The notes under the pieces are model-generated. The model saw nothing but the letters and a program-made list of their open reading frames with translations. It did no database searches and was not told the DNA's origin. This document shows, piece after piece, positions 5,903 to 44,356 of a stretch of DNA of 64,000 nucleotides. This DNA is from Candidatus Woesebacteria bacterium GW2011_GWB1_39_12. Its GTDB lineage: Bacteria; Patescibacteriota; Microgenomatia; UBA8517. Location: contig LBWB01000005.1 in the NCBI GenBank assembly GCA_000993405.1, positions 3,698 through 67,697 of the forward strand, in the 5' to 3' direction. Within the stretch, counting starts at the first letter, position 1; each line of letters begins with the position of its first letter. The position numbers were made by a program, and so were the translations under genes.

Positions 5903-5974
5903 TAATTTTAGTCTAGCACAAAAACTATTTGTCAAAAAGTCTATGCCGACTTTGCTGGTATAATTAAAAACAAC

Positions 5975-8582: not shown

Positions 8583-8807
8583 ATGCAAGATTTTGGAAGT
8601 ATTGCACCCTCTATCTTTATTCTTATAAAAATTGCTGTTTGGATTTTTCTTTTTACGTATGTTCTATTTTCCGGAGTTGTCATAAAACAAGTTCGTGTTA
8701 TGACGCAGACTTTGGAAGTAGGCTTTGAAAAACCGATAAAACTCATTGCGCTTGTTCACTTTATTGTCTCTCTCACCGTTTTTATTTTAGCCCTTATTAT
8801 TCTTTAA
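8583..8807 (+). CDS. Small hypothetical membrane protein
   Basis: 74 aa, two predicted TM segments. Start overlaps the stop of the upstream gene. Confidence 0.45.
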   Translation: MQDFGSIAPSIFILIKIAVWIFLFTYVLFSGVVIKQVRVMTQTLEVGFEKPIKLIALVHFIVSLTVFILALIIL

Positions 8808-8825
8808 GATAAAGTGTCTTAGCTT

Positions 8826-8851
8826 ATGAACTGGTTTCAAAACCAGTTCAT
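8826..8851 (+). terminator. Perfect 12-bp inverted repeat (atgaactggttt / aaaccagttcat) downstream of the 8583..8807 gene
   Basis: Seen in sequence. No T-tract follows, so it could be a Rho-independent-like hairpin or a protein-binding palindrome. Confidence 0.35.
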
Positions 8852-8908
8852 ATAACCTAGTGTAAGCTCTCAAAACGAGCCTAGAAGGCGAGTTTTGAAA
8901 CAGGTTCT

Positions 8909-20925: not shown

Positions 20926-22551
20926 TTGAGAAATCTGAAAAAGGTTATGCTTACGAGAAAATTTAGAGGTTTTGCGGACAGGAAATTATTTCTGTTTTTT
21001 TGGGTCCTTTTATTCATAGCTTTTTGTTCAAAGGCGTTTATCTTCTTGGACCCGGATTTTGGTTGGAGGATAAAGGCCGGAGAAATTTATTTAAATTCCG
21101 GCATTCCTGAAACTGACCCCTTTTCATATACAATGTCCGCTTTTCCTTGGGTGGATCACGCCTGGAGTCAGTCGCTTCTTTTTTATTTTATATATTCAAA
21201 GCTTGGTTATTTTGGGCTAGCGCTTCTCGAATCACTTCTTGCGATTTTGGGTCTTTATTTAATTTCTTTTAGCTTTGGTAAGCCAATTTTGAGTAAAGAA
21301 ATTCTCAAAAATCTGGGATTTTATATAAATACGAGGTTTTTAAAACCTTTCTTTTTTGAATTGTCTTACGAAAAGCTGGGGCTATTCTTAAGTTTCCCTG
21401 TTCTTTTAGGGGCCTCAATATTTTTTACCTTTTTTGGTATTCGAGCCCAAACAGTCAGCTGGCTAATGATGTCCTTTTTGGTTCTTATTCTCTTTAAATC
21501 AAATTTGGGAAAAGCCAAATATATTATTCCACCACTTTTTCTTTTCTGGGCCAATCTTCACGGAAGTTTTTTGATGGGTCTAACCACATTTTTTATTTTT
21601 TTATTTTTAAAATCTGTAAGAACCAAAAAAGCGTTGATTAGCGAATGGACAATTTTAATTGTAAGCATTTTGCTAACATTTATTAACCCTTATGAAGGTG
21701 GAATTTGGAAAGAGGCATTTTCTTCCATTTCAGATACAAAACTTCGTTTTAGCATAGTCGAGTGGATGCCGGCACTTATGATGCTTGACTTGGCAATAGT
21801 TTCTTTTATAGGAATTTCGTTCAGTCTTTTTGTGAAATATAGGAAGAAGCTAAGGCTCGAGGAAACCGGATTATATATATTCTTTTTGACCTCGGCATTA
21901 CTGTCAAGAAGACACCTGCCTTTATTTGTAATTATTGCTATTCCGGTTACGGTTAAGACAATCAATTTTCTTTTGGAAGATGCAAAGAAAGTAAAGAAAG
22001 GGCAAGAGAGATTTACAAAGTTTTATAAAACGCTCTGGTTAACCAGCCTTATAATTTTCTTTATCCAAGCCATTTTTGCATTTCGTGAGGCTGGTTACTT
22101 AGGCTATGGCGGTTTTTATCCAAAGGAGGCCGTTTCTTATCTAAATGAAAATTTGCCTCGAGGTGAGATTTTCTCAGAATATGGTTGGGGGGGATATTTA
22201 ATTTGGAAATTGCCGCAAAAAAAAGTATTTGTTGATGGCAGAATGCCATCTTGGAGATGGGACGAGCCAGATAATGCTGGATTAACTTCAGCCTTTGATA
22301 CTTATAACGAAGTACTGTCGGGGAAGGTTGACTATAGAAAAGTATTTGAAAGATATGATGTCGAAGTTGTACTTTGGAGTAAACCTAAAGAAGAAGACAA
22401 ACTGGATGATCTGACCGAGAAACTTGAAGGGTTCCTTTCGGTTTTCGGATGGGAGACAAGCGATTTTGATCTTTTGCAGGCTTTAGAGCAAGATGGTTGG
22501 GTGAAAGTATACGAAGATGAAGTGGCGGTTTTATATAAAAGCCCTCGTTAA
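20926..22551 (+). CDS. Large polytopic membrane protein with a C-terminal soluble domain, putative envelope glycopolymer biosynthesis
   Basis: 541 aa with 10 or more TM helices. Divergently transcribed from the previous gene across a 40-nt spacer that contains the 7-bp inverted repeat ctggtaa/ttaccag. Confidence 0.4.
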   Translation: MRNLKKVMLTRKFRGFADRKLFLFFWVLLFIAFCSKAFIFLDPDFGWRIKAGEIYLNSGIPETDPFSYTMSAFPWVDHAWSQSLLFYFIYSKLGYFGLALLESLLAILGLYLISFSFGKPILSKEILKNLGFYINTRFLKPFFFELSYEKLGLFLSFPVLLGASIFFTFFGIRAQTVSWLMMSFLVLILFKSNLGKAKYIIPPLFLFWANLHGSFLMGLTTFFIFLFLKSVRTKKALISEWTILIVSILLTFINPYEGGIWKEAFSSISDTKLRFSIVEWMPALMMLDLAIVSFIGISFSLFVKYRKKLRLEETGLYIFFLTSALLSRRHLPLFVIIAIPVTVKTINFLLEDAKKVKKGQERFTKFYKTLWLTSLIIFFIQAIFAFREAGYLGYGGFYPKEAVSYLNENLPRGEIFSEYGWGGYLIWKLPQKKVFVDGRMPSWRWDEPDNAGLTSAFDTYNEVLSGKVDYRKVFERYDVEVVLWSKPKEEDKLDDLTEKLEGFLSVFGWETSDFDLLQALEQDGWVKVYEDEVAVLYKSPR

Positions 22552-22593
22552 TTTTCATCCTTTCTTCGGTTTTATTTGATATAATGAAATAAG

Positions 22594-24393
22594 ATGGCAG
22601 ATCAGGTTGATGAGGTAAAGTCAAAAATAGATATAGTATCTTTAATTTCTGAGTACGTTGAGCTTAAGCGCGCGGGCAGAAATTATAAAGCTTTATGCCC
22701 TTTTCACTCCGAAAAGTCCCCTTCGTTTATGGTTTCACCCGAACTCCAGATTTTCAAATGTTTTGGGTGTCAAAAAGGTGGCGATGCTATAACCTTTTTA
22801 CAAGAATATGAAGGAATGGATTTTCCCGAAGCCTTAAAATTTTTAGCCGAAAGGGTTGGGGTAAAGCTTATTAGAGAAAATTTTGTCGGTAAAGACAATA
22901 AAGAAAGGTTATATGAAATAAATTCTCTCGCGTCTCGCTTCTACCATTATATTTTACTCAATCACAATGCAGGGAAAATTGCTCTTGATTATTTAAAAAA
23001 TGAGCGGGGGGTAAAGCTTGATACGATAAAAACTTTCCAGATAGGTTATTCTCCCGATACCCCTCTTGCTTTTAAGAAATATTTAGTGGAAAAGAAAAAA
23101 ATTTCACTGAAGGAACTGGAGAAGGTAGGACTTATTTATAGCAAAAATGGAGTTGCTTTTGATAGATTTCGGGGAAGGATTATTTTTCCTTTACACGACC
23201 ACAGAGGTAATATTGTTGGTTTTTCGGGCAGAGTTCTTCCGGAAGCACGTAATGATATTGCAAAATATATTAATTCGCCCGAGACCGAAATTTATCACAA
23301 GTCAAAAATTCTTTTTGGCTTACAGTTTACAAAAGGCGAGATTAAAAAAGAAAAAGAAGCTGTTATTGTGGAAGGAGAGCTCGACGCCATCTCGTCGTGG
23401 CAAGTCGGAATAAAAAATATTGTTGCGATTAAAGGTTCGGCACTAACCGATGAGCAGGTAAGACTTTTGGGTAGATTTACTCAAAAACTGATCTTGGCGC
23501 TTGACACCGATTTTGCAGGCAATGAGGCAGCGAGGCGCGGATTTGAAACTGCCGAGAAGCTAGGTTTTGATATCAAGGTTGCAAAACTTTATGGATTCAA
23601 AGATCCGGATGAGGCTGCTCGCAAGGATCCCGAGAAGCTAAAGGAAAGTTTGACAAAAGCAAAAGACGTCTGGGATTTTATTATCGACTTAATATTTGAG
23701 CGTTATCCGAGCCTAAACGGAAGCGATAAGGCAAAAATAAGTAGGGAAATAATTCCGATACTCTCGGACATAAAGGATAAAATTGTTCAAGCTCATTATA
23801 TAGACATTGTGGCTAGAAAACTTGGAGTTTCTTTGGAAGTCGTTTCAGAACAAGTGAATAAGGTTGTTGGGGAAGAAGTTGAAAAACCGAAGCTTGAGAT
23901 ATTAGTAAAGCCCCAAGCGAAAATGCGGCGTGAGCTTTTAGAAGAGAGATTCTTGGCAATCGTCTTTCGCTATGATCCCAGAATTCTTCTTAAGAATACG
24001 CGACTTATCAAGTTAATACAAACGCCTTTGGCAAAAAGAATTGTAGAGGAGTTTAAATCTTTTTCTAAAAAGCATGCTGACTTTGATCCATCACTTTTTG
24101 CCTCTTTACTGCCGGGTGAACTTGTCGACGGCTACGTTGATTTGATACTAAAGGATATAAAAGGCTTGGATCCTGAAAATCCTGAGAGAATGGAAAAAGA
24201 GATTGTTCTTATCGAGAAGGAGTTAAGCGTACTTGATGTCAAAGAAAAGCTGGAAGAAGTTTCATTACAGATTGGCGATTTGGAGGAATTGAAAGACCTG
24301 AAGATGGTAAAAAGGAAGGAAGAAGAATTTGGGGAATTAACAAAAAAGCTAAATGAACTTGAGCACAAGAATTTTAAGGGTATAATTCTTTAG
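22594..24393 (+). CDS. dnaG: DNA primase DnaG
   Basis: 599 aa. CHC2 zinc finger CPFHSEKSPSFMVSPELQIFKCFGCQKGGDAITF. TOPRIM region EGELDAIS...DTDFAGNEAA. Followed by rpoD, the classic operon arrangement. Confidence 0.9.
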   Translation: MADQVDEVKSKIDIVSLISEYVELKRAGRNYKALCPFHSEKSPSFMVSPELQIFKCFGCQKGGDAITFLQEYEGMDFPEALKFLAERVGVKLIRENFVGKDNKERLYEINSLASRFYHYILLNHNAGKIALDYLKNERGVKLDTIKTFQIGYSPDTPLAFKKYLVEKKKISLKELEKVGLIYSKNGVAFDRFRGRIIFPLHDHRGNIVGFSGRVLPEARNDIAKYINSPETEIYHKSKILFGLQFTKGEIKKEKEAVIVEGELDAISSWQVGIKNIVAIKGSALTDEQVRLLGRFTQKLILALDTDFAGNEAARRGFETAEKLGFDIKVAKLYGFKDPDEAARKDPEKLKESLTKAKDVWDFIIDLIFERYPSLNGSDKAKISREIIPILSDIKDKIVQAHYIDIVARKLGVSLEVVSEQVNKVVGEEVEKPKLEILVKPQAKMRRELLEERFLAIVFRYDPRILLKNTRLIKLIQTPLAKRIVEEFKSFSKKHADFDPSLFASLLPGELVDGYVDLILKDIKGLDPENPERMEKEIVLIEKELSVLDVKEKLEEVSLQIGDLEELKDLKMVKRKEEEFGELTKKLNELEHKNFKGIIL

Positions 24394-24397
24394 TGAC

Positions 24398-24736
24398 ATG
24401 GCAAAGAAAGAGACAGCTGATTTAATTAAAAAAGGAAGAGACCAGGGTTTTCTAACTCAAGATGATATATTGGAGGTTTTTCCCAACGCAGAAGAAAACT
24501 TGACCGAGCTTGACGATCTTTATGACAAACTCTTGGCAGAAAGCATTGACGTATTTGAGTCGGTTGAAGCTGAAGAAATGGATTCCGATGAGAAAGCGAA
24601 AGAAAAGCTCGAGCGGGAAATTGAGATTTTATCAAAGCTGGGTGGCGCCGAATCAACCGATCCGGTCTCAGTCAAATCTTCGTCTGGTCGTTTCAATAGC
24701 CAAAAAATATATCGGCCGCGGGCTATCTCTTCTTGA
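24398..24736 (+). pseudogene. rpoD: RNA polymerase sigma-70 (RpoD) N-terminal fragment: region 1.1 through the start of region 1.2; frame breaks after ...STDPV
   Basis: [44 protein letters not shown] aligns to sigma-70 region 1.1. STDPV begins region 1.2, after which the frame diverges to [12 protein letters not shown]...*. The remainder of rpoD continues in the +1 frame. Confidence 0.6.
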
Positions 24737-25367
24737 TCTTATCCAAGAAGGTAATCAGGGTTTAATAAGAGCGGTTGAAAAATATGATTGGAGAAAAGGT
24801 TTTAAATTTTCTACTTATGCTACCTGGTGGATTCGTCAGGCAATAACCCGGGCGATTGCAGATCAGGCTCGAACCATAAGAATTCCGGTACACATGGTTG
24901 AGACGATTAATAAACTTTATAGAATCAGCAGGCGTCTGATGCAAGAGTTGGGTCGGGAACCGACCGCCGAAGAGATCGCAGAAGAGGCGGAACTGGATGC
25001 CGACAGAGTTAGGGAAATTTTTAAAATTGCCCAGGAAGTAACCTCGCTCGAGGCTCCTGTCGGAGAGGACCAGGAGAGTTTCCTGGGAGATTTTATTCCT
25101 GATGAAAGCCAGCTTTCTCCGGTTGATGCCGCATCAAAACAACTCTTGAAGAATCATCTCGACGAGGTTTTGGCGACTCTTTCTGACAGGGAAGCGAGGG
25201 TTTTAAAGTTAAGATTTGGTCTGGAGGGAAATAAGCAAATGACTTTGGAAGAGGTTGGGAAGGTTTTCGGGGTAACCCGTGAGCGCATTCGTCAAATTGA
25301 AGCAAAAGCACTGCGTAAGCTAAAGCATCCCAGTCGACGAAAGAAACTTCAGGATTATTTGGAGTAA
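24510..25367 (+). CDS. rpoD: RNA polymerase sigma-70 factor RpoD, regions 2-4 (reading frame continues from the upstream fragment after an apparent deletion/frameshift)
   Basis: [81 protein letters not shown]...[41 protein letters not shown] is near-identical to primary sigma factors. Sigma-like sequence begins at about 24679. The annotated ATG at 24510 is not a biological start. Confidence 0.75.
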
Positions 25368-25394: not shown

Positions 25395-26501
25395 ATGCCT
25401 GCCTTTATTAAAAGATTTCTTTTGGTTTTGTTGTTTGCACTTTCATTTTCTACCGGTCTTTTTGCGAGTTATTTTTACTTAAACTTTTCCAAAGTTTTTA
25501 TTAAAACTCCCAAAGATGTTTCGCTTGAAGATAACGCTTCTAGCAATTTACCTGACGGAACATACAACATTCTTTTATTAGGCTACGGAGGAGCAGGACA
25601 CGACGGCGGGAATTTGTCCGATGTAATCATTGTCGTAAACATTAATCCCGAAAGAAAAAAGTTGACCTTGATATCAATTCCTAGGGATCTGTGGGTCGAA
25701 ATACCGGTACGGTCCGATATAAAGGAAAAATATAAAATTAATGCGGCCTATGCAATTGGAAGTGACGATAAAAAGTACCCCCTTAAAGAACCACAATATA
25801 AAGGCGAAACTGGCGCCGGTGTAATGGCCAAAAAGGTAGTTACAGAATCGATTGGTTTGCCAATTCACTATTTTCTAGCAGTGGATTTTGAAAGTTTTAA
25901 AAAGATAGTTGATACTTTGGGAGAGATAGAGGTTGATGTTCCTGTAACATTTGATGATTACTTTTACCCGATAAAAGGGCGGGAAAACGATACCTGCGGA
26001 AAGTCGGCAGCAGAAATTGCCAGACTTCATGGGCTTTATTCAGACACAGAACTTCATCACCAGTTTGAGTGTCGTTATGAACATATCCATTTTGATTCAG
26101 GCAAAGTAAAAATGGATGGCGAGACCTCTTTAAAATTCGTCCGCTCCCGGGCGTCGGCCCAGCATGGAGGAGACTTTGCCAGAAGTCAACGCCAGCAGGC
26201 AGTTTTGGTGGCTATGAAAAGTAAACTTATTTCAATTTATGCGGCCAGAAAGATTGATGAGCTGTTTAATGAGTTTGGAAATCTGGTTAGGACTGATTTG
26301 GACACTTCAGCAGTAAAAGATTTGTCAAAAATTTTGGGAAAGCCTGAAGATTATAAAATTTCTTTTATAGGGCTTAACGAAGACAATGTTCTGCTTGCTT
26401 CAAAAAGTCTGGACGGCCAGTTTATATTAATACCCAAGGAGGGCGAGGGAGTATTGACAGGAGTGCACAAATTTATATTCGATGAATTGAATAAAAACTA
26501 A
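25395..26501 (+). CDS. LytR-CpsA-Psr (LCP) family cell-envelope glycopolymer transferase
   Basis: ORF 25371..26501 begins at TTG. ATG at 25395 (MPAFIKRFLLVLLFALSF, TM anchor). NILLLGYGGAGHDGGNLSDVIIVVNINPERKKLTLISIPRDLWVEIP matches the LCP signature. Confidence 0.75.
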   Translation: MPAFIKRFLLVLLFALSFSTGLFASYFYLNFSKVFIKTPKDVSLEDNASSNLPDGTYNILLLGYGGAGHDGGNLSDVIIVVNINPERKKLTLISIPRDLWVEIPVRSDIKEKYKINAAYAIGSDDKKYPLKEPQYKGETGAGVMAKKVVTESIGLPIHYFLAVDFESFKKIVDTLGEIEVDVPVTFDDYFYPIKGRENDTCGKSAAEIARLHGLYSDTELHHQFECRYEHIHFDSGKVKMDGETSLKFVRSRASAQHGGDFARSQRQQAVLVAMKSKLISIYAARKIDELFNEFGNLVRTDLDTSAVKDLSKILGKPEDYKISFIGLNEDNVLLASKSLDGQFILIPKEGEGVLTGVHKFIFDELNKN

Positions 26502-27754: not shown

Positions 27755-28159
27755 CTAGGTCTTGGAGTCTATTTGTCCAAAGTCAAGCGCTATGCAAGGT
27801 TCGTCACCAATTACCCAAGCGTCATGTCCTGATTGAACCTCAAAAGCCTCTCCCGGACCAACAGAGACTTCTTGGCCGTCGGCAGTCCGGGTGCACATTC
27901 GACCTGATATAACATAACCAATATGCGCTTCGGAACTCTTACCGGTCTCCTTCCCTACAAGTTCGGACCATCTCCAACCAGGTAAATATTTCCCTCGACC
28001 AATAAAAACCGAGTCCAGAATTACCACTGTCCGTTCGCTTCCATCCAGAAAAGTCCACGATTTTTCACCGTTATCCAAATTCTTTACAACAATTCCTGTC
28101 ATATTTTGGATTATAACAGGTTGGGGGGAAATTTGAGGCAAAGTTGACGAAGCGCTCAC
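27755..28159 (-). CDS. Cupin-domain protein
   Basis: 134 aa. HIGYVISGRMCTRTADGQEVSVGPGEAFEVQSGHDAWVIGDEPCIALDF fits a cupin beta-barrel. Confidence 0.55.
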   Translation of the reverse strand: MSASSTLPQISPQPVIIQNMTGIVVKNLDNGEKSWTFLDGSERTVVILDSVFIGRGKYLPGWRWSELVGKETGKSSEAHIGYVISGRMCTRTADGQEVSVGPGEAFEVQSGHDAWVIGDEPCIALDFGQIDSKT

Positions 28160-28824
28160 TTGGTCTTGAAAATTTCCTTTTTAAGACTCCTCGCCAGTTT
28201 TAAATAAAAGTTCTCCATATCTTTTCTTTCTAAAGGAACCAGAAGTTTAGGGATATCTTTATAGATAACTGCCTCGGTGAACGATTGTCCGAGTTGTATA
28301 GGATCAATTGGCCAGTCGAATTTTGCTCGAGCTAGGTCAATCAGTTTTCGCAAGGAATAATTTTCTTTCTTCATAATAAAATAGATATCTACGAAATCTC
28401 TTTCTCTTGGTTTAGTTGAAATGGTGTGGATTTTGTTTGCGGCGATGTCTTCTAAGCTATCAACCGCTAAGCCGTGCCATTTTTTACCTTTGTTAATCCT
28501 GGGAAATGGGTAGTAATTAAAATCGACTTTTAATTCATTTGTTAACAATTTCAGCGTATAGGAGTGCAGACCTAGATATCTTCGATGAGTTATTTTTTTG
28601 GCTTTTAGTTTTTTTCCGGCAATCCCGACAAATTTATTAATGCTTGGTAAATGAATCTCTTTTTCGCTGAATAAATCGATGTCTTGTGATTCGCGATGCT
28701 TGAGATAAATTTCTGAAAGAACAGTACCACCTGTCCAGTAGAAGTTTTTTAAAAGATATGGCTCTTTTAGGACAAGTGCCAAAAAGTTTTTTTGATGTTT
28801 TTTGAGGACGGTTTTTTCCTCCAT
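28156..28824 (-). CDS. Nucleotidyltransferase AbiEii/AbiGii-family toxin (type IV TA / abortive infection)
   Basis: 222 aa. FYWTGGTVLSEIYLKHRESQDIDLFSEKEI matches the family's GGTAL...R.SEDIDL signature. Confidence 0.65.
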   Translation of the reverse strand: MEEKTVLKKHQKNFLALVLKEPYLLKNFYWTGGTVLSEIYLKHRESQDIDLFSEKEIHLPSINKFVGIAGKKLKAKKITHRRYLGLHSYTLKLLTNELKVDFNYYPFPRINKGKKWHGLAVDSLEDIAANKIHTISTKPRERDFVDIYFIMKKENYSLRKLIDLARAKFDWPIDPIQLGQSFTEAVIYKDIPKLLVPLERKDMENFYLKLARSLKKEIFKTK

Positions 28825-29128: not shown

Positions 29129-29488
29129 CTATTCGTATGACTGTTTTATCCAATCAATCAACCCTTTGTCAATATCTTTGGACTCCTTTATGTCTACAAA
29201 ATAAGCCCACCTTTGTTTTTGAAAATGCTTAACTTTATTAATTCGAGGGCTTTTAAATTGTTTTCTTGCAACAAATTCGACAATAATCTTTGATGTTTGA
29301 ATCCGCAATGCTGCAAAGACAAGGGTGTGTATCAAGCCAATGTAGGCTTTGCCGATTTTGTATTCAAAGTCGATCTCTTTGACCAATTTGGTAGTCAGGT
29401 CGTCAAATAAAGGCTTCATATTCACTCTCTCACCACGAAAGTGATAATCAAGCGGATAGGAAGATTGTTTGTTAATCTTAACAGTCAT
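29129..29488 (-). CDS. Hypothetical protein
   Basis: 119 aa, no recognisable motif. Confidence 0.5.
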   Translation of the reverse strand: MTVKINKQSSYPLDYHFRGERVNMKPLFDDLTTKLVKEIDFEYKIGKAYIGLIHTLVFAALRIQTSKIIVEFVARKQFKSPRINKVKHFQKQRWAYFVDIKESKDIDKGLIDWIKQSYE

Positions 29489-29609: not shown

Positions 29610-30338
29610 TCAGAACTGATGTTTTTCAAGATAGCTTACACAGTCACCTTGATTTTTGAAAGCTGGATTATTGAACGTTTTCCAACTACTGTTTTTACAC
29701 TGAACTCTACCAATTGGTGGACCAACTATTGAGTCCGATGTAAGAGTAAAATCATCAAAACTCCCACCACCATTACCACTGTTAAGTCCAGATAGACCTA
29801 TTCGGTTTGAAGTAGTCGCTATGTGAGTTAAGATATATACATCGTTCAAATATATTGCTAATTCTCCAGAAAGACTGTTTGTCTCAACTCTCATTGTATA
29901 CCATATCGTCCGGGTAGAAATTGAAGTAAGTGGGTAATCATAGTAATCATAACGCTGTGCTGTTCCTTCGGACTCAATAACTCTAAGGATATTTGCATCG
30001 GGATAAATTAGAACATCTATCCAATTATTTTCATCGATATACCATACAGTAATTCCAGCGTAACCGTTATCATGAAATAGTATTTTTGTCTCAACGGACT
30101 GGTCAGATAGGGAATAATTGCCCACCAGAAATTTATAATGGTCACGACCATTGTCTTCAATTAAAACACCATCAGTAACTCGCCAGTTTCCTAAACTGCA
30201 CCAAGTGCATGGCTTGGCTGAAATCCATCCGATAGTATCTTCATCATTAAAGTTATCAAAAAACTTGCCAGCGTAAGCAGGAGTAACGGCTAATCCGAAT
30301 AAGATTACTAATACAATCACTAGGCATATTTTTTTCAT
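29610..30338 (-). CDS. Secreted protein with a concanavalin/LamG-like jelly-roll fold
   Basis: 242 aa. Signal peptide MKKICLVIVLVILFGLAVTPAYA. FDNFNDEDTIGWISAK...GNWRVTDGVLIEDN resembles DUF1080/LamG-type lectin-fold domains. Confidence 0.4.
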   Translation of the reverse strand: MKKICLVIVLVILFGLAVTPAYAGKFFDNFNDEDTIGWISAKPCTWCSLGNWRVTDGVLIEDNGRDHYKFLVGNYSLSDQSVETKILFHDNGYAGITVWYIDENNWIDVLIYPDANILRVIESEGTAQRYDYYDYPLTSISTRTIWYTMRVETNSLSGELAIYLNDVYILTHIATTSNRIGLSGLNSGNGGGSFDDFTLTSDSIVGPPIGRVQCKNSSWKTFNNPAFKNQGDCVSYLEKHQF

Positions 30339-30476
30339 ATCTAAAGTATACCAGTTTAGGTATGTACAAGCTTAAGAAACCAAAGTCTTCTTGAATGAGG
30401 CTAAAATGCTACAATTTCTCATCTCTTTTTCACCGCCTTACTCTGGTAAAAGTTTTCTATAGAAGAAGACCTTTTT

Positions 30477-30503
30477 CCTTGCTCATTGCTGCATAGCGCG
30501 GGG
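30477..30503. repeat. Copy 2 of the direct repeat ccttgctcattgctgcatagcgcggg
   Basis: See the copy at 29086-29114. Confidence 0.75.
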
Positions 30504-30541
30504 AGTAGTTTTCGGCGGGAGATACAGTTCTTTTTGACAAT

Positions 30542-31705
30542 TCAGACGAATGCTGGTTCAGGAGGAATCGTGGTAACAGTTGCGGGTACAGGACTGTCAA
30601 CTTCAGACCTGTACGCTTTTTTACTAATATTTTCAGAGGCTGATCTTTTTACCAGTTCTTTGACTATTATTCTAATTAACTTTTTAGCCTCAATTTCATT
30701 CACTTTTGACGAAGTGTTCCAATCAAGCCCCGGTCCTGTATTACCTTCCAGAAAATAGATGTTTTTATTATTGCTGATTATAAAATCTAAAGAATATAAA
30801 GAGCTGTCATTCCCCAAAACTTTTGTAATCTCTTTTGAAAGGTTTGTTATTCCTTGCGGAATTTCTCTTTTTGAAACATAAATTAGACAACCGCCTCTAT
30901 GTTCATTGCATCGAAAGCCCCCCCGTTTAGCAATTCTTATATAAGTTTGTATGATTTTCCCTCCCAAAAAAATAAGACGTATGTCTGTCGGAGAAAAAGA
31001 ATCGTGGTATCTGAACCCTTTATCAAATTTGATAAAAGGCTGAAGTATAAAAGTTTTGGAACTTTTTTTCACAATTCTTACAATACTCTTCAAATTATTT
31101 TTTTTGAATTTAAAAACACTCCTTCCGCCTGCGCCAAATCTGTCTTTCATTATAATTTCGTCGGAAAAGTCCTCGCGGTGGGGATGGTTGCTTTTTATCT
31201 GTTCGAGAGTTTTACAAGCGCTTTTGACACTTTTAAGAGTATTTTTTTTAATACTCACCGTTGGAATGGAGAATTGATGGAGTTTTTTATAAGTTTCGTA
31301 TTTGTCAAAAAAAAGATCGAAAAGATATGGAGAATTAAAGGGTTTAACTTTTTCGGAAGAAAACAAAAGATCTCGACTGTCTTTAATTCTCTTGTTCACA
31401 GGTGAAAATTTATCGAAAATTAATTTTGAGTAACCCGCCTTTTTTACCTTAATCCACTTACTTTTGTCAAAAAGCCAGTAACTTTTGCATTTGCCGGCAC
31501 CGATTACGCCGGCGGAAGTAGTAAAAGCTGCTTTTAAGCCATTCTTTTGGCAGATTTCTAAAAAAAATCCGTATACAATATTGTAACTTTCGCTATTCGA
31601 ACCCTTAGCAAAAGGAAGCACTACACCGTTTTTTAAAGTAGAGGCGCTGGTGGCAAGTTTTTCTGTGTATACAATTAGAATATCAAACAGTTCACTTTCC
31701 ATCAA
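30542..31705 (-). CDS. ATP-grasp domain protein
   Basis: 387 aa. IMKDRFGAGGRSVFKFK...FILQPFI...DIRLIFLGGKIIQTYIRIAKRGGFRCNEHRGG fits an ATP-grasp ligase fold (RimK/YheC-D-like). Confidence 0.5.
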   Translation of the reverse strand: MMESELFDILIVYTEKLATSASTLKNGVVLPFAKGSNSESYNIVYGFFLEICQKNGLKAAFTTSAGVIGAGKCKSYWLFDKSKWIKVKKAGYSKLIFDKFSPVNKRIKDSRDLLFSSEKVKPFNSPYLFDLFFDKYETYKKLHQFSIPTVSIKKNTLKSVKSACKTLEQIKSNHPHREDFSDEIIMKDRFGAGGRSVFKFKKNNLKSIVRIVKKSSKTFILQPFIKFDKGFRYHDSFSPTDIRLIFLGGKIIQTYIRIAKRGGFRCNEHRGGCLIYVSKREIPQGITNLSKEITKVLGNDSSLYSLDFIISNNKNIYFLEGNTGPGLDWNTSSKVNEIEAKKLIRIIVKELVKRSASENISKKAYRSEVDSPVPATVTTIPPEPAFV

Positions 31706-32892
31706 ACGAATGTTAACGCGTTTCCTTTTTTATTGGCTCTTCCTGTTCTTCCGATACGGTGAATGTAGTCCTCATAGGTTTCGGGAAGATCGTAGTTAAT
31801 AACGTGAGTGACATCTTTGATATCAAGTCCGCGTGATGCAATGTCTGTAGCAAGGAGTACTTGTACCTTATTGTTTTTGAAAAGCTCCAGCGCCTTCCGT
31901 CTTTGGCCTTGGGATTTATTGCCATGGATAGTTGCAACTGTTACTCTTCGCTCAACTAAAGCGCTTGCAACCCTGTCTATTCCTCGTTTTGTTCTGCCAA
32001 ATACCAGGACTTTTTCAAATTCCCTATTAGTCAAGAGTTCGTCAAGCACGTCAATTTTATCCCGACCGTTTAACTTCACAATATCCTGGTTTACGCTTGC
32101 GGGAGTGGGTTGGGATTTAAGAGAAATAACCAAAGGATCACGGGCAAAATCGCTCATAATTTTTTGTACCTTTTCCGGTAATGTGGCGGAGAAAAAGAGA
32201 GAATGCCGCTCTCGAGAAAGTTTTGAGACAATATATCTAACGTCCACGATGAAGCCCATATCAAGCATCCGGTCTACTTCATCTAGGACAATACTTCTGA
32301 ACGAGTTGAAATCCAGCTGTCTTCGGCTTTCTAAGTCCTTTAATCTTCCGGGGGTTCCCACTACAAAATGAGGACTTCTTCTTAGTTTGTGAATTTGACT
32401 ACCGATACCGACTCCGCCGATACAAATAACTGACTCTATATGAGTTCCTCTTGCCAGATCTGTTAATTCCTGTTCGACTTGGATAGCCAATTCTCGTGTT
32501 GGAGTGACAATAAGAACCTTTTCGCGATCATTTTTTAATATCTTGTCGATGAGCGGGATTAAGAATGTTGCTGTTTTGCCGGTACCCGTATTTGCAATAC
32601 CTACAACATCCTTTCCGTCAAGGATAGGGAGGATGGCCGCGTCTTGTATGGGGGTAAGAACTTTATAGCCTTTGAGAGAGATATTTTGTTTCAGAATGGA
32701 GTGAATTTGAAAATCCGAAAAAGAATGGGTTGGAGTAAATTCTTCAATGGAAAATTCTGCGGCATCGTGAATGAACATGGCCGGGTTGTAAGAAGGAGTA
32801 CTTCTTCCTCCACGAGGGAAATGTCCATTTCCACGATTGCCAAATGAATTACCCCGTCTATTAAAAAGTCTGCGATGATTTTGTCTAAACAT
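31702..32892 (-). CDS. DEAD-box ATP-dependent RNA helicase
   Basis: 396 aa. Q-motif region, GIANTGTGKTATF (motif I), PTRELA, VLDEVDRMLDMGF (motif II), SAT, HGNKSQGQRRKALELF, HRIGRTGRANKKG (motif VI). Confidence 0.9.
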   Translation of the reverse strand: MFRQNHRRLFNRRGNSFGNRGNGHFPRGGRSTPSYNPAMFIHDAAEFSIEEFTPTHSFSDFQIHSILKQNISLKGYKVLTPIQDAAILPILDGKDVVGIANTGTGKTATFLIPLIDKILKNDREKVLIVTPTRELAIQVEQELTDLARGTHIESVICIGGVGIGSQIHKLRRSPHFVVGTPGRLKDLESRRQLDFNSFRSIVLDEVDRMLDMGFIVDVRYIVSKLSRERHSLFFSATLPEKVQKIMSDFARDPLVISLKSQPTPASVNQDIVKLNGRDKIDVLDELLTNREFEKVLVFGRTKRGIDRVASALVERRVTVATIHGNKSQGQRRKALELFKNNKVQVLLATDIASRGLDIKDVTHVINYDLPETYEDYIHRIGRTGRANKKGNALTFV

Positions 32893-33315
32893 GTGTGTTT
32901 AAAATCGATCAAAACAATAAAACTGCTCAACTAGTTACGTATTATTGAAGAAGATGAAAAGATACAGGAAGAAAAATAAAATAATTGGGGTACCTTTACC
33001 TATCTAAATTCAAAATATGTTAAAAATTAAGCAGATCTATTGCTTCGATCTGCTCTCACAAAGTGTACTATATCACAAATATCCTAAAAGTCCAGCAAAG
33101 ACCATTACTCGACAACAACTTGATCAGTTACGCCTTTTTCCCCAACTATGAATTTTCTCTTGATGGCCTTAGAAATAACAACTTTCCGGTGTTAACAAAA
33201 GACACGTTCAATATTGATTGATAGATTCTCAAATATAAGCATAAATCCCCTTGCGCCCTGACTCTGAGGTTCTTAGACTAAAACTTTAGCCCTGACATAA
33301 ACAACTTTGTCAACT

Positions 33316-33570
33316 TCATCTTTGTAAGGGCGGCTGGCCTCCGCCAGCTGGTGGATTTTGTTGTTGTCCTTGGGGAGGTTGCTGCCCTCCAGTTGGAGGA
33401 GGGGAACCCTGGGGTTGTCCACCCTGTTGCCCTGGTTGTTGAACTCCCCCTTGAGGGGTTCCTTGGTTTTTGGGAACAATATTTCTTCCAAGATAGAAAC
33501 CGACTACTCCAGCAACTAAAAGTCCAATCATCACCCAAGTTAAAATTAAAGCCTTGCCGGCCGTCGACAT
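33316..33570 (-). CDS. Small membrane protein with a Gln/Pro/Gly-rich low-complexity tail
   Basis: SD AGAGGTGA precedes the ATG at 33570 (MSTAGKALILTWVMIGLLVAGVVGF...QQPGQQGGQPQGSPPPTGGQQPPQGQQQ). Confidence 0.45.
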   Translation of the reverse strand: MSTAGKALILTWVMIGLLVAGVVGFYLGRNIVPKNQGTPQGGVQQPGQQGGQPQGSPPPTGGQQPPQGQQQNPPAGGGQPPLQR

Positions 33571-33730
33571 TTTTGTCACCTCTTTTAAAGCTAACAGGAA
33601 AAGAAAACAAAGTCAAAAAATATGTTAGATATTCCCCAGACTTTTTTGGCCCCCCCTGATTGACATGTTCCCTTCGGTTTAACTCAGGGTAAACAGGAAC
33701 AAGAAAATTTAGACCCTTAGCGAGCCACGG

Positions 33731-33982
33731 TCAACGATGAAGGCAACCGGCCCAACAACAAGGTCGGCGCTTCCCGTCTATAAGCTCCTCACGTACTCGT
33801 TCGACATGATTTCTTCTCGTCTCTAGTTTCTTGACGGAAGTGGTCCAGCAAATCCATTCATTACGTGCCAGCGGAGTAAGACCATTCCAAGCCGCCAATA
33901 CAGCTGGACTAGAAGTAAGTACCTTTCGCAAGTCAATCGGAACTTTATGTACTACACCAGTGGCGATTTCATTTTTAGCCAT
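33731..33982 (-). CDS. Hypothetical small protein (YdeI/OmdA-like?)
   Basis: 83 aa ending ...ERVREELIDGKRRPCCWAGCLHR. Family assignment uncertain. Confidence 0.4.
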   Translation of the reverse strand: MAKNEIATGVVHKVPIDLRKVLTSSPAVLAAWNGLTPLARNEWICWTTSVKKLETRRNHVERVREELIDGKRRPCCWAGCLHR

Positions 33983-34072
33983 GTTGCTTATTTTACCATT
34001 CTTTTTTCTTCTTTGGTTTTGGCTCCACCCGGCAGAAAATACGAGAACCTACTATGCTAGTATATAGAATAC

Positions 34073-34285
34073 ATGAAGCTAACCAATGACAGATACACAA
34101 TTTTCTTAGGCACTAAGAATTTCACTGAACGTTATTATAAAGATAAAAACGGGTGGCTGAAGGTATCCGCACGAGGTAAAGAATTTCGGATGACAGCAGA
34201 ACAAGTTCTAAATCATCTTTTACCAGCACTTTCTGGCATTAAATCAAACCTTAAAATCAAAGTAGAATATAATAAAGAGCCTTAG
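34073..34285 (+). CDS. Hypothetical small protein
   Basis: 70 aa, isolated ORF with no clear SD. Confidence 0.3.
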   Translation: MKLTNDRYTIFLGTKNFTERYYKDKNGWLKVSARGKEFRMTAEQVLNHLLPALSGIKSNLKIKVEYNKEP

Positions 34286-34428
34286 GTATAAATATATTCA
34301 GCTCGCCAAGTGGGACGACCTGTGGTGAGCAATGCCGTACCATTTCAGACAAGCAGAATGGTTTGAAATTGTCGACACTCCTGATCTTATTCAAACCCCG
34401 ATTCATTCGAAGGAGTGAACAAACTTGT

Positions 34429-35052
34429 TTATTCTACAGATTTGGAAATTTTTGTGAGACCGTAGTTGACGGCCTGCTCAAGTTTATCTGGCGACATACT
34501 GCAGCTTTTCGAATCCGTATCGTTAATAAAGTCCTCCCATTTGCTAATCCACTCGCCATCGCCAAGAGCGTTAAGTTCCTGGATGATATTTGTCTTATCT
34601 GTTGCACTAAAACAGTTCGGAGGCTGTTTTCCAAAGGTTGACATCATCATGGATGCGGTACGTGCGATATTGGGAATATCGTCGGTAGCTACCTGCAGTT
34701 TGCTAAGTGTGTCTTTTGTTGATGCAAGTTCTTCTTCGCCAGTTTTCAATTTAAGATTGAGGATTTCGACTTCTTTTGCAAGGTCTGTGCTTTTGTAGAA
34801 AATCAAGTCTTTTTCGAGTTGCACACTTTTTTCTTTTGACTGAGCCAGGTTATTTATTGTGGTTGTTAAATCAGATGAGAGAGACTGGTTTTTCATAAAG
34901 AGAAAGCCTGTTCCAACCACTCCTACTATTGCAATTACTCCTGTTAAAACAAGAACGATGCGGGTTTTTGAAGGGGAAGGGATTGATACATTCTTTTGAG
35001 CCTGAGTTACGGTTTGAGACTGATTGGCGGGGACAGTTTCCATTAATTTCAT
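34429..35052 (-). CDS. Membrane-anchored coiled-coil protein, hypothetical
   Basis: 207 aa. N-terminal TM RIVLVLTGVIAIVGVVGTGFLF, then a coiled-coil region. Confidence 0.5.
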   Translation of the reverse strand: MKLMETVPANQSQTVTQAQKNVSIPSPSKTRIVLVLTGVIAIVGVVGTGFLFMKNQSLSSDLTTTINNLAQSKEKSVQLEKDLIFYKSTDLAKEVEILNLKLKTGEEELASTKDTLSKLQVATDDIPNIARTASMMMSTFGKQPPNCFSATDKTNIIQELNALGDGEWISKWEDFINDTDSKSCSMSPDKLEQAVNYGLTKISKSVE

Positions 35053-35222
35053 TTTTACACAAAAGCCAAGAAAGAATCAAGGAGTGGAGGATATTTATCT
35101 CCATTTCGAGGGTTATATTAAGTATCAACTGGTTTACACTGAGCCCTTCTACTTCGATCAGGATAAACTTGCCGAAGTGCTCCACTTTTTGGATACTATC
35201 CGAATGCTTAACTACTTGGATA

Positions 35223-35585
35223 TTATCCCGCCCTCGTACCATTGGGAACCATTTTCTCAGGAATCGCTAGAACAGGAGTGATTTTGTCAGCATATCCAAT
35301 ATCAAATAACATTCCTTCTGATAGCTCGCCCATCATTTCCTTAGGCTCAAGGTTTACCACGAATAAGGCCTGTTTTCCTTCTATCTCCTGAGGGTTTGCC
35401 CGTTCGTTTTTGAGTCCAACAAGAATCTTACGTTTATGATCTCCAAAATTAACAATAAGTCTTACTAGTTTGTCTGAATTTTCGATATCTTCAACTGCCT
35501 CTATTGTTCCGACTCGGATATCCAACTTTTCTAGATCCTCGAATTTAATGAGTGGTTTTATTGGTGCAACTTTTATAAGTGACAT
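35223..35585 (-). CDS. tRNA-binding domain protein (CsaA/Trbp111-like, EMAP/MetRS C-terminal-type OB fold)
   Basis: 120 aa. DIRVGTIEAVEDIENSDKLVRLIVNFGDHKRKILVGLKN...LEPKEMMGELSEGMLF matches the tRNA-binding OB-fold domain. Confidence 0.7.
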   Translation of the reverse strand: MSLIKVAPIKPLIKFEDLEKLDIRVGTIEAVEDIENSDKLVRLIVNFGDHKRKILVGLKNERANPQEIEGKQALFVVNLEPKEMMGELSEGMLFDIGYADKITPVLAIPEKMVPNGTRAG

Positions 35586-35602
35586 AATTTTTGTGATATG
35601 TT

Positions 35603-35923
35603 TTAGGACGAGAGAATGATAAAAGGTTTATGACGATTTTTGGGATTAAATCTCCTATATATTACTGAAGAGTTTTGCGCATCTACGGTAATAAGATAGC
35701 CATCCTTATTAACATGTGGATACGTACGTCCTGATTTATGTCCGCTATCAAATCGTTCCGCTACCAATGTTGCATAATTTAGACTTTTAGTTCCGCGTCC
35801 TGAGATAAAGTTAGGGAATTGAATGTTCAGAAAGAGATTAGAGAAAGAAAAAGTTCCATTTTTTATATTCTTGAATGAGCTCATACCCAATTCAGAAAGT
35901 GTTTTAGTTTTTCTCCTCTTCAT
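35603..35923 (-). CDS. Hypothetical protein
   Basis: 106 aa. Confidence 0.4.
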   Translation of the reverse strand: MKRRKTKTLSELGMSSFKNIKNGTFSFSNLFLNIQFPNFISGRGTKSLNYATLVAERFDSGHKSGRTYPHVNKDGYLITVDAQNSSVIYRRFNPKNRHKPFIILSS

Positions 35924-36047
35924 ATAATGTTAAATATTGGTTCGGATAAAATCAACTTGGCTCGAGAAATGGTCACAATTTCGGACAACTGACTGGGTAA
36001 ATTACCTTGAATACCCAGAATACGCAACTAAGGAAGTTAATCGATTC

Positions 36048-36947
36048 CTAAACCTTAGTTAAGATATTTTGAGGCTTACCTGCTACAAAAGCTTCGATAT
36101 TCTGCACCGCTATTTCGGCACCATTTACAAGCGCTTGTTTAGACGACCAGGCAATGTGAGGAGTTACTAGCACCTTTGGATTACTCAGGGCTTTCTGATA
36201 GAACTCGTTAGTTGTATCGCCAAACTTTTCTGGATCGCAGTCTATTGCAGCGCCTCCCACAATTCCGTTATCAATCGATTTGAGCAACCCATCCAGGTCA
36301 TAAGTGTATCGTCTGACAAAGGACACAAAGTAAGCACTCTTTTTAAGCGACATAAAGAACTTTTCATCAAGTAAGTTTTTACTTGTAGAGTTGCAATTGA
36401 GGGCGTTAATCACTAAGTCAGCATCGGCGGCTTTGGCAATTAAATCGTCACCTCGTTCAAAGAAGCTGACTTTCATACCCAAAGCCTCACAAGGAATAGC
36501 AATCTTAGAGCCTATGCTTCCTTTGCCGACAATAAGCACTTTCTTTTCATTCAAGCTCTCATGAACTTCGACAGAGATGGTTTTGTCAGCCCTTACTAAG
36601 GGAATAAACTTACGAAACAAGGCAAGGGTCATGAACATCACCCACTCGATAATTGATGGTCTATTGCCACCTTGTGAATTAGCAACTACTACGCCTTTCT
36701 TTTTTAGCTCTTTAGAGTTGAATACACCAAGTTCGACATAGGGATAAGTCACAAAAATATCTTTTAATTTGGGTAAGCTATCGAGCAGGAACGCACCGTC
36801 ACTATAAAGAACATCAGCCCCATAAGTTTGCTTAACTAAGTCATCAGAACTTGACGGACTGGAAAGATAATTAACCTCACCTAGCGCTTCAAGCCGTGCC
36901 TTTTGTTTGTCTGTTGGATTGGCTCCTAATACTACAATTTTTGTCAT
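36048..36947 (-). CDS. D-isomer-specific 2-hydroxyacid dehydrogenase (NAD-binding)
   Basis: 299 aa. VLIVGKGSIGSKIA (GxGxxG), GGAAIDC, TPHIAWSS are signatures of the D-2-hydroxyacid dehydrogenase family. Confidence 0.8.
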   Translation of the reverse strand: MTKIVVLGANPTDKQKARLEALGEVNYLSSPSSSDDLVKQTYGADVLYSDGAFLLDSLPKLKDIFVTYPYVELGVFNSKELKKKGVVVANSQGGNRPSIIEWVMFMTLALFRKFIPLVRADKTISVEVHESLNEKKVLIVGKGSIGSKIAIPCEALGMKVSFFERGDDLIAKAADADLVINALNCNSTSKNLLDEKFFMSLKKSAYFVSFVRRYTYDLDGLLKSIDNGIVGGAAIDCDPEKFGDTTNEFYQKALSNPKVLVTPHIAWSSKQALVNGAEIAVQNIEAFVAGKPQNILTKV

Positions 36948-36967
36948 ATAGATTTATATTACACCAA

Positions 36968-37351
36968 TTATATTTTTTGTTGGTTCTTCGCAGCTAATTT
37001 GGAATCAGTGACATTCCCAGTGTTTAGCGTTACTTTTGGCTCGATTAAGACTATGTGAACTTCTTCTTTTGCTTCGGGTTTATGCTCGATTGGGTGCGGA
37101 ATTATGACAAACTCGCCCTCGTTTATTTCCACATCTCTGTCTCTGAAGTGAATTGTCAACCGACCTTTAATCACCAAAAACAGCTCGTCTTCACTTTCGT
37201 GGTGATGCCAGACAAATTCTCCTTTGAGTTTTACTACCTGAACCTTATGGTCATTCAACTCACCAACGATTTTGGGATTCCAGTATTCCTTGAAAAGAGA
37301 CAGTTTATCGGCGATATTGACTACTTTTACGGTATCACTGATGTTTTTCAT
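36968..37351 (-). CDS. Cupin-domain protein
   Basis: 127 aa. WHHHESEDELFLVIKGRLTIHF...GEFVIIPHPIEHKPEA fits a cupin fold. Confidence 0.6.
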   Translation of the reverse strand: MKNISDTVKVVNIADKLSLFKEYWNPKIVGELNDHKVQVVKLKGEFVWHHHESEDELFLVIKGRLTIHFRDRDVEINEGEFVIIPHPIEHKPEAKEEVHIVLIEPKVTLNTGNVTDSKLAAKNQQKI

Positions 37352-37391
37352 ATCTTGTTTATTATAACAAAATTAGCCGATTTGTTCTTTC

Positions 37392-37760
37392 TCAAAGTTT
37401 GTATCTCGGATCCAACAAAGTGCAAATTGCCAGAAATACGAGCAAATATAAAATGCCGCCAATAACTAACTTTTCTAAAAAAGATACCTGCCTTCTTCTT
37501 ATTATCTTGGGTATAGCGATTAATAGAAAAGCCTCGATGACAAACGAAAGACCGCCAAGACCATAATAAAAAATTATCTGGAGTGGTTTAGATAGAAACG
37601 AAATGTCTTCTTTTACATCACCGAAAAGATCAAGTGGTGTAGAGATCTTCAAAATGTCTTGGGTTATATCCTTCAGAAAGTGGACAAGAATGAAAATATA
37701 CAGGAACGGAAGAAGTAGTCTCCAGATGTTAAAGACTGATTTGATCTGTTTAATTTTCAT
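37392..37760 (-). CDS. Hypothetical membrane protein
   Basis: 122 aa, 3-4 TM helices. Confidence 0.45.
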   Translation of the reverse strand: MKIKQIKSVFNIWRLLLPFLYIFILVHFLKDITQDILKISTPLDLFGDVKEDISFLSKPLQIIFYYGLGGLSFVIEAFLLIAIPKIIRRRQVSFLEKLVIGGILYLLVFLAICTLLDPRYKL

Positions 37761-37779
37761 AATTTCAATCCCAAAGCTC

Positions 37780-38064
37780 CTATGGCAATATGGTTGCTAA
37801 AAACCAAAGTGGTAAGGAAAACACAACCAAAGCACCCAATAAGCCAAGTCTATCTCTTTTCAAAACCACCAACGACCCCACAATACCCAGAAGGTCTAAA
37901 GGATAGGTTACATAATTACAGTATGGCTTGCACCACAGATGAGGTCTATGGAGAATGTTGGTAAATGAACTGTGTAACCCAAAAACTTGTAGAGTATCCC
38001 TGATTAGGTGATAAACCGAAGCAAGAAAAATAACAATAAATACCAATTTCAAGAATTTGCTCAT
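37780..38064 (-). CDS. Hypothetical membrane protein
   Basis: 94 aa, 2-3 TM helices. Overlaps the upstream gene by 4 nt. Confidence 0.45.
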   Translation of the reverse strand: MSKFLKLVFIVIFLASVYHLIRDTLQVFGLHSSFTNILHRPHLWCKPYCNYVTYPLDLLGIVGSLVVLKRDRLGLLGALVVFSLPLWFLATILP

Positions 38065-38534
38065 AGGATAAACCAGCGAGAAACTTGCTGTGTATACCTG
38101 ACATAGTCCTCCCCATACCTCGCTTTTAATATGGGTTCTTCAACTCTAATCAGGTAAATATGAAGTCCTACCGCCCCGATAAGAAATAACCCCAACAACA
38201 TTATGTGCCCAAGAGAAAGAAACAAGCCCAAGTATATAAGCGCATGAGCTACATAAATCGGATTCCTTGTGAATTTATACACGCCTTTAATCACCAACTT
38301 TTTAGGAGGTTCTGTCAGCATAGGAGTCCCTCTACCGTGGAGCTTAAATGTTAAACTCGCAATTAAAGCAAGTAATACGCCACCTACGGTAAGCACGTAG
38401 CCCAGCGATTTCAGAACTCCAAAGTCAATTTGGGGTAAGTTAAGCGCAGTATTTATATAAGCAAAACTCAGTGGAAGAAGCACCCATAACAGTAGAATAG
38501 CGAACAAACCAAATAAAAAGGATTTGAACTTCAT
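38061..38534 (-). CDS. Isoprenylcysteine carboxyl methyltransferase (ICMT)/phospholipid methyltransferase family membrane protein
   Basis: 157 aa. VYKFTRNPIYVAHALIYLGLFLSLGH matches the family's RNPxY...G motif. Confidence 0.65.
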   Translation of the reverse strand: MKFKSFLFGLFAILLLWVLLPLSFAYINTALNLPQIDFGVLKSLGYVLTVGGVLLALIASLTFKLHGRGTPMLTEPPKKLVIKGVYKFTRNPIYVAHALIYLGLFLSLGHIMLLGLFLIGAVGLHIYLIRVEEPILKARYGEDYVRYTQQVSRWFIL

Positions 38535-38588
38535 CTTAGCAACAAGTATACCTCTTCCTACTGAAAAATTGTATAATTAAGTTGAGTT

Positions 38589-38777
38589 ATGCCGAAGAAA
38601 AACACGACTTTACCAAAATTGTTAACTATCCGCCAAGCAGCGGAGATTTTGAATGTCCATGTGGAGACACTGAGACGATGGGATAAAAGCGGAAAGTTGA
38701 AGGCTACCCGAATCAACGAGCGTGGTGATAGGCGCTATGACCCAAGAGATATCGAAAAAATCTTAAATAACAAATAA
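38589..38777 (+). CDS. Excisionase/MerR-type helix-turn-helix DNA-binding protein
   Basis: 62 aa. LLTIRQAAEILNVHVETLRRWDKSGKLKATRINERGDRRYDPRDIEKI is typical of the excisionase-family HTH. Directly precedes the 1134-aa ORF with a 4-nt gap. Confidence 0.7.
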   Translation: MPKKNTTLPKLLTIRQAAEILNVHVETLRRWDKSGKLKATRINERGDRRYDPRDIEKILNNK

Positions 38778-38781
38778 ATCT

Positions 38782-42186: not shown

Positions 42187-42483
42187 GAAATAAACAATGT
42201 TGACTTATTGACCAGCGCGTTAGCCCCCGTGTTGACTTTGTAGGCGCTTTCGTGCTTGAAGTGGCATCTGATTACCTTATGTTAGCTTCAGAAGCCTCGT
42301 TGGGGATTTGTTGCAGGAGTCTGCAGTAGTTCTGGGAGGACTCCTTAACCTCCATACTTGATTGGGCTAGCCTGGAGAGTTTCCTGGTAAAACCAGTATA
42401 TTTCTAGCGTCAGAACCAATAAGTAATTTAACTCAATAACAATAAAAATTCAACTTCACTTGATATTTCTCTCTTTTCTATTG

Positions 42484-43257
42484 TTACTTCGGCGCTTGTC
42501 CGTTCAGCTCGTTTGAATAGACGATCACTTGCCCTCCGTTAGTGATGGTTAAGCTCAGGCTTCCGCCTGTGCTGTTTCGCCATCCGAAGAAGTAGTTGAT
42601 CTTGCTGCCTCCGCCGTCCTTTATGTTCGTCATTTCAGGATCGAGTTTTAGGCTTGTCAGGTCTACTCCGAGGATATTTTTATGATCTTCGATAAACTTC
42701 TCGGCTACCTTCTGGGCTTGCGCCTGAGTGTAGCGGGGAGTGTAGTCGTATTCCGCTTGCGGATCAAACCAACGACTGCCATCTGAGTTCGTTCCCCATC
42801 TGCTACCTTCCCATGCTTCTGCCCTCACTGAGACGATGTAATTCGTCTTTGGGTCTATCGTGAAGCCTCCAAGCTTGGCATTATAATGCTCGTTCTTGGG
42901 ATTGTTATAATCGGTGCCTTCAAAGGTGCTGCAGATAAAATCCACAGCAACTGACTTATCACCAAGAAACTCTTTGATATTGGCGACTGCCTTTGCCCTC
43001 TGGTCTTCTGGTCGGGCTGTCAGTTGGCAGTATTCTTTGTAGGCATCTTTATGCGCCTGGCTCTCAGCATTCTTATTTGTGTTCATCGCCTCTACTAACT
43101 GGGCGATTCTCGTCGCTTTGGCATCAGTTGACAATGTCGGGGCAACTTTTGATTGATTTATTAAACGAGGGATTAGGATGATAACCAGAAGCGCAACTAC
43201 TGCTAAAAGTAAAATAGCGGGAAGAAAACGAGATTTATTTTTATTTGTCATATTCAT
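42484..43257 (-). CDS. Membrane-anchored extracytoplasmic protein, hypothetical
   Basis: 257 aa. N-terminal TM LPAILLLAVVALLVIILIP. Strong SD GAGGAGGTGA. Confidence 0.55.
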   Translation of the reverse strand: MNMTNKNKSRFLPAILLLAVVALLVIILIPRLINQSKVAPTLSTDAKATRIAQLVEAMNTNKNAESQAHKDAYKEYCQLTARPEDQRAKAVANIKEFLGDKSVAVDFICSTFEGTDYNNPKNEHYNAKLGGFTIDPKTNYIVSVRAEAWEGSRWGTNSDGSRWFDPQAEYDYTPRYTQAQAQKVAEKFIEDHKNILGVDLTSLKLDPEMTNIKDGGGSKINYFFGWRNSTGGSLSLTITNGGQVIVYSNELNGQAPK

Positions 43258-44252: not shown

Positions 44253-44356
44253 TCGTCTCCCAACCCGCAAAACTCCTCGTAAGATCGTAAATTCTTCCTA
44301 GACAAGCCCGTGGCAACTTGCTACTGATTCCCCAAGAATATGGGTAGCTATCAATT

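Follow-up and report, generated by a model that had tools for sequence, protein, structure and literature searches.

The window analysed here, a 64-kb stretch of a 74,301-bp contig of the MAG GW2011_GWB1_39_12 (G+C content 39.3%, in keeping with the bin name, and without a single N), carries the gene for the primary sigma factor, rpoD, immediately downstream of that for the primase, dnaG. The latter (599 aa, 22594-24393, plus strand) is an open reading frame (ORF) whose identical protein in other assemblies matches the Pfam families Zn_ribbon_DnaG, DNAG_N, Toprim and DnaB_bind, and rpoD begins with an ATG at 24398, four bases after its end, which is the conserved dnaG-rpoD arrangement that a previous reading of the sequence only (the sequence-only reading) had described. 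The rpoD gene is, however, broken at 24666|24667 and region 1.2 is missing. A first ORF (ORF1, 24398-24736, 112 aa) matches Sigma70_r1_1 (PF03979; residues 4-71, E = 8.8e-11), and its sigma-like part ends with ...AESTDPV, beyond which there is an out-of-frame tail of 22 residues and a stop (24668-24736) that, when the translation is set against the intact protein, has no counterpart peptide in the intact gene. A second ORF, open from 24510 to 25367 and in the +1 frame relative to ORF1, matches the families for regions 2 (PF04542, 6.6e-24), 3 (PF04539, 2.5e-26) and 4 (PF04545, 5.3e-19). In the Pfam search Sigma70_r1_2 (PF00140) was unmatched on both of these ORFs, and DPV is all that remains of it. 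Region 1.1, regions 2-4 and the dnaG-rpoD gene order expected of a primary sigma gene are thus all present, and what is absent is the one uninterrupted reading frame. Both the split and the missing region 1.2 had been recognized in the sequence-only reading, and the ORFs and Pfam matches bear it out, including its coordinates and the +1 relation of the two frames.

When the intact sigma protein from a sibling assembly was used in a tblastn search of the window, it returned two pieces in two frames and nothing more, such that the 64-kb window contains no second sigma gene by this search. The 5' part (24398-24666, plus strand) comprises codons 1-89 and two bases of codon 90, that is, region 1.1 and the DPV of region 1.2. 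The 3' part (24667-25367, plus strand) comprises the two last bases of codon T127, codons Q128-E359 and the stop (regions 2.1-4.2), and was recovered by tblastn as residues 127-359 at 99.6% identity, a figure that counts the broken junction codon. GenBank annotates the gene as two fragments on the same contig, both named 'MAG: RNA polymerase sigma factor': KKR01319.1 (112 aa, UniRef100_A0A0G0MB96) and KKR01320.1 (157 aa), the latter an exact-sequence match to 24894-25367 on the plus strand that starts at a Met within region 2.4/3.0. These entries are fragments of one gene, rather than a short sigma factor and a protein consisting only of region 1.1, and this is of some importance for database hygiene. 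The LytR_cpsA_psr ORF that follows on the plus strand (25398-26501) is unaffected, and encodes 368 aa as called on a sibling contig or 376 aa if read from a TTG at 25371.

An exact 110-nt deletion relative to sibling assemblies

The intact form of the gene is found in further assemblies of the same Rifle groundwater population. A DnaG protein identical to that of the window is encoded on 18 contigs (JGI, ENA, NCBI and Logan assemblies), and on those of the shown contigs that extend beyond the next gene (L001, L002, L003, and L005) this next gene is an intact rpoD of 359 aa with all five Pfam regions. The exact 359-aa protein, represented by KKQ98010.1 of the sibling MAG GW2011_GWA1_39_12, occurs on 14 contigs, six of which are 50-200 kb in length. 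KKQ98010.1 is an intact RpoD/SigA that lies in the same dnaG-rpoD-lytR neighbourhood as the gene in the window, and it differs from the latter in being encoded by a single ORF that has the 110 nt for R91-T127 (region 1.2 and the linker to region 2.1) which the window lacks.

Alignment to the intact sibling sequences gives the size of the deletion as exactly 110 nt, or 36 codons plus 2 nt, at a junction that reads CCGGT/CTCAGTC (24666-24667, plus strand). By alignment and BLAST the absent segment corresponds to positions 6074-6183 of L001 (JGI 3300025030), AAGACAATAC...CAAACTGA, or nt 270-379 of the gene, and its loss removes residues R91-L126 and breaks codon T127 (A|CT). The third base of V90 is now supplied by the second base of T127, which leaves the codon as Val and moves the frame by two bases, and from this 2-nt offset gene callers produce two fragments. 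The estimate of about 37 missing codons in the sequence-only reading was therefore correct, and is refined here to 110 nt between 24666 and 24667. Its view of the 7-nt tcagtca as a spacer between the two halves does not hold, as these bases are original coding sequence, namely the T of codon T127 together with the codons for Q128 and S129. In the intact protein Sigma70_r1_2 is matched at residues 88-120.

Outside of the deletion there are no differences. All of the 970 retained bases of the gene are nucleotide-identical to the intact allele, with the 5' part being 100% identical to L001 up to 24666 and the 3' part 100% identical to L001 6184-6884, and hence there is no sign of decay. The identity continues into the flanks, as L001 and the window match at 100.000% across 9.7 kb (6073 nt left of the junction and 3617 nt right of it) with the 110-nt gap as the sole difference, L002 and L004 are 100% identical to the window on either side of the junction for as far as they extend, and L003 is 100% identical to its left. 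Positions 1-57704 of the window are tiled by four sibling contigs (L016, L001, L028, and L020) with one mismatch in total and no indel besides the 110 bp (positions 57705-64000 lie beyond this tiling, and a look-up of a 353-aa protein encoded towards the end of the window matched no record). The lesion is specific and not a chance pattern, and rpoD appears broken because one MAG lacks 110 bases that assemblies of the same population, and of the same genotype, possess. It is not a property of the organism, whose real rpoD is an ordinary, uninterrupted primary sigma gene of 359 aa. A comparison with close relatives had been suggested in the sequence-only reading, together with the proviso that an intact single ORF containing region 1.2 would overturn the split; such ORFs are indeed what the sibling assemblies contain, although they do not come from re-sequencing of this sample. 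Near-identical sibling assemblies of the same population can thus resolve flags of this type cheaply and without reads.

Strain comparisons show how the intact gene evolves. The rpoD allele of L024 differs from the intact allele by 13 nt and 0 aa, and that of L005 by 23 nt and 1 aa (A121V), with seven of these nucleotide differences and the one amino acid difference falling within the 110-nt segment. That 13-23 nt but only 0-1 aa have changed means that rpoD, region 1.2 included, is under strong purifying selection in this population. PF00140 is retained in 120/120 of the best homologues, and the siblings, as well as all but one of these homologues (a fused entry), are single full-length ORFs.

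Several further observations concern the strain alleles and homologues themselves. Synonymous strain variation is dense across 24487-25100 (L003, L005, and L024), and two of these contigs, L003 and L024, match the window at 100% on the upstream side of 24666 and differ from it only beyond that point, which represents either recombinant strains or chimeric consensus assemblies. One homologue, a 406-aa Woesebacteria RpoD (P0061), has an insertion of ~47 aa between regions 1.2 and 2.1, a linker that tolerates insertions with region 1.2 retained. The fused entry (P0001, 530 aa) consists of two sigma-factor copies joined head to tail and is probably another assembly artefact. P0137 and P0142, sigma fragments of 157 aa that fall into the same cluster at 90%, were considered as further cases of the lesion and rejected, since they are contig-edge truncations from unrelated genomes.

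Loss during assembly or a real deletion allele

We consider the split to be a 110-bp loss in one MAG record, most likely a local assembly or scaffold-joining error, a reading that we favour with no great confidence. The 110 bases would have been lost in silico at a stretch where co-occurring strains differ at 7/110 positions; short-read graph assemblers can break and re-join at such strain-variable stretches, and the frame offset of 2 nt would then yield the two called fragments. The GW2011 MAGs are reportedly IDBA-UD assemblies, as attributed to Brown and co-workers in 2015. Of the seven positions in the segment that vary between strains, the first (A in L001, C in L005) directly adjoins the left breakpoint; the right breakpoint coincides with no strain-variable site seen, and contigs of other mixed-strain assemblies (L004-L007) end within a few hundred bases of the junction. 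The pipeline of the same laboratory used IDBA-UD with maxk 100 on 150-bp reads, with samples assembled separately (PMC4736985), and local assembly errors are a known feature of its short-read MAGs (Chen, Anantharaman, Shaiber, Eren & Banfield 2020, PMC7111523). The frequency of the latter, approximately one per 60-90 kb, fits the one per 58 kb of the window, with the difference that Chen et al. (2020, PMC7111523) define errors by missing read support, and for the lesion in the window a Logan contig (see below) hints at the existence of such support.

The sequence-only reading had left two alternatives, an assembly or consensus error and a variant sigma factor. The first of these fits the findings, as the lesion is private and the intact gene is found at 100% nucleotide identity on 14 contigs, and the second has no support. 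Private here means that the lesion is confined to the GenBank record and to one 2.7-kb Logan contig, and it is this contig that lends weight to another explanation. A real and very recent null allele (a pseudogene) may have existed in a sub-population, or in the DNA pool, of one sample (time point B, 0.1-um filter) and have been caught by two assemblers, being transient, accompanied by intact copies, or stemming from non-viable cells; we regard this as a substantial possibility that falls short of being probable. The contig (run SRR29904083, 2673 bp, approximately window 22158-24830) encodes the identical DnaG followed by the exact 112-aa out-of-frame product. Logan contigs are assembled from raw runs, and as the exact product requires the same junction, reads across it must exist if SRR29904083 consists of genuine environmental reads, in which case a purely in silico error would be refuted and the deletion would be a real allele, present in sufficient abundance for the graph to pass through it. 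The contig extends for ~2.5 kb to one side of the junction and for ~160 nt to the other. Judging from the behaviour of k-mer graphs, this suggests that the path through the junction was more than a minor branch in SRR29904083. The ends of the contig fall where contigs of real mixed-strain metagenomes break (L004-L007). On the other hand, SRR29904083 might be the same library deposited again, another Rifle sample, or reads generated from deposited genomes. A literature search found this run in no paper, and the 2014-era runs of the same collection gave no 112-aa product. With respect to decay, there are zero further changes relative to the intact allele, and the single Logan contig that shares the product may not be independent of the record.

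The biology of the gene also speaks against a real allele, since a null mutation in the sole primary sigma gene in view should kill the cell, an intact gene is present on 14 contigs of the identical genotype from other samples, and the strain comparisons point to strong purifying selection. Neither do the breakpoints resemble those typical of a deletion within a cell, in that there is no microhomology at the junction with the strain-A allele, the segment is not flanked by direct or inverted repeats, and no hairpin was found, with the DNA fold of the region being no better than that of shuffled sequences (z = 0.17). A 7-nt repeat inside the segment, AAGACAA, was rejected as a cause because a deletion from copy to copy would remove 98 nt and have other ends. 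No short repeated k-mer that would explain a mis-join in an assembly graph was found either. Exact-pattern scans of genome and metagenome contig collections do not bear on the matter, as a 34-nt pattern of the intact allele was unmatched in them in spite of its presence in L001 (Ga0209518_1000292); these collections therefore do not cover the population and their negatives for the junction are uninformative.

An alternative source of an artefact is editing after assembly, in which a run of N, or a stretch flagged as unsupported, was placed during curation and later stripped, closing the sequence over a 110-nt hole. Sibling scaffolds do have N-gaps of the wrong length, for example 100 N at positions 9900-9999 of L018 (ANAN16-1 SAMN03202996) opposite 149 nt in the window (8759-8907), the window has no N whatsoever, and editing would give breakpoints without homology. 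The same product on a Logan contig argues against it, and we regard editing as very improbable. Overall, assembly, and not an event in a cell, is the likeliest origin of the missing 110 bases; as a rough assessment, loss in silico stands slightly above an even chance and a real but dead allele somewhat below it.

Functional readings of the split gene

Region 1.2 of sigma-70 belongs to the sigma-2 domain and is required for open complexes to form. The split gene could nevertheless be functional if an internal start yielded a sigma factor without region 1.2 in addition to a free region-1.1 peptide, or if +1 ribosomal frameshifting near the junction fused the two parts. The 3' part is undamaged, and the +1 frame, open from 24510 onwards, would permit a fusion by a shift at any point ahead of 24736. 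However, positions 24667-24675 offer no stop, rare codon or slippery context, and the frame of ORF1 continues for 60 nt beyond the junction to the stop at 24734-24736. The relatives have one uninterrupted ORF, so that nothing conserved could programme a shift. Of the nine in-frame internal start codons checked, 0/9 are preceded by a TATAAT box or by a Shine-Dalgarno core. Region 1.2 itself is found in 120/120 homologues, and in this population purifying selection acts on it. The proposal in the sequence-only reading of a real variant sigma, made by frameshifting or from an internal start, thus finds no support in the frameshift context, the start signals or the unsplit relatives. A functional variant sigma is very unlikely, and a functional split gene of either type is to us a highly doubtful prospect.

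The TATAAT pattern was included in this search because the Shine-Dalgarno test is weak in this organism, where an SD-like tetramer precedes 8/55 genes. Of the called genes, 8/55 have a perfect TATAAT at a distance of 8-12 nt ahead of the start codon, with 0.6 expected by chance; examples are the stretches preceding dnaG (22574-22593) and rpoD (24378-24397) and those at 5955-5974 and 38569-38588. The predicted rpoD promoter is located within the 3' end of dnaG. By sequence pattern this suggests that leaderless or near-leaderless mRNAs may be widespread in this Woesebacterium.

Two known systems are instructive in comparison. In the prfB type of programmed +1 frameshift there are likewise two overlapping ORFs and a +1 shift within one gene, whereas rpoD of the window has no in-frame stop or slippery site, its split is not conserved, and 36 essential codons are missing rather than merely re-phased. 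Engineered mutants of E. coli sigma-70 in which region 1.2 is deleted or substituted are in-frame laboratory constructs that are defective in open-complex formation. As in rpoD of the window, region 1.2 is lost and regions 2-4 are kept in these mutants; in the window, in contrast, the frame is also broken, and the natural relatives all keep region 1.2. A further scenario is that of a genuine allele that is dominant in one Rifle groundwater sample, with cells that either survive on a sigma factor devoid of region 1.2, produced by +1 frameshifting or from an internal start that went unrecognised, or are polyploid and harbour intact genome copies as well as the null allele, and this we find scarcely credible. 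If such an allele were real and abundant, it would raise the question of how a CPR bacterium tolerates the loss of its only visible primary sigma gene, but the evidence points away from this. The split gene is not a new kind of sigma factor and its biology is ordinary.

Other features of the window

An island of ~11.7 kb (35964-47689) is absent from the sibling contig L030 (ENA ERZ4903072), which joins 29900-35963 directly to 47690-49459. At the end of the island there is a gene for a large serine recombinase (46118-47704, Resolvase and Recombinase), and the cargo includes a 62-aa MerR/HTH_17 gene followed by one for a 1134-aa protein that has no Pfam match (38782-42186). In a second sibling contig (L029) this site is occupied by different genes, for an AAA_21/AAA_15 ATPase and a DUF5677 protein, and the island has the appearance of an integrative element at a variable hotspot.

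On the minus strand, at least six small genes with matches to T4SS_pilin (PF18895) are located at 2338-6001 and adjoin a SpoIID-domain gene (5975-7723). Also on the minus strand, at 28156-28824 and 29129-29488, are an AbiEii-family toxin gene (PF08843) and a nearby DUF5655 gene, which lie between the lytR region and a DEAD-box helicase/RimK-like pair. Finally, a gene of the 23S_rRNA_IVP family (PF05635; 54504-54854) is situated between pgk and gap in a run of glycolysis genes that encode TIM, RpiB, PGK, and GAPDH.
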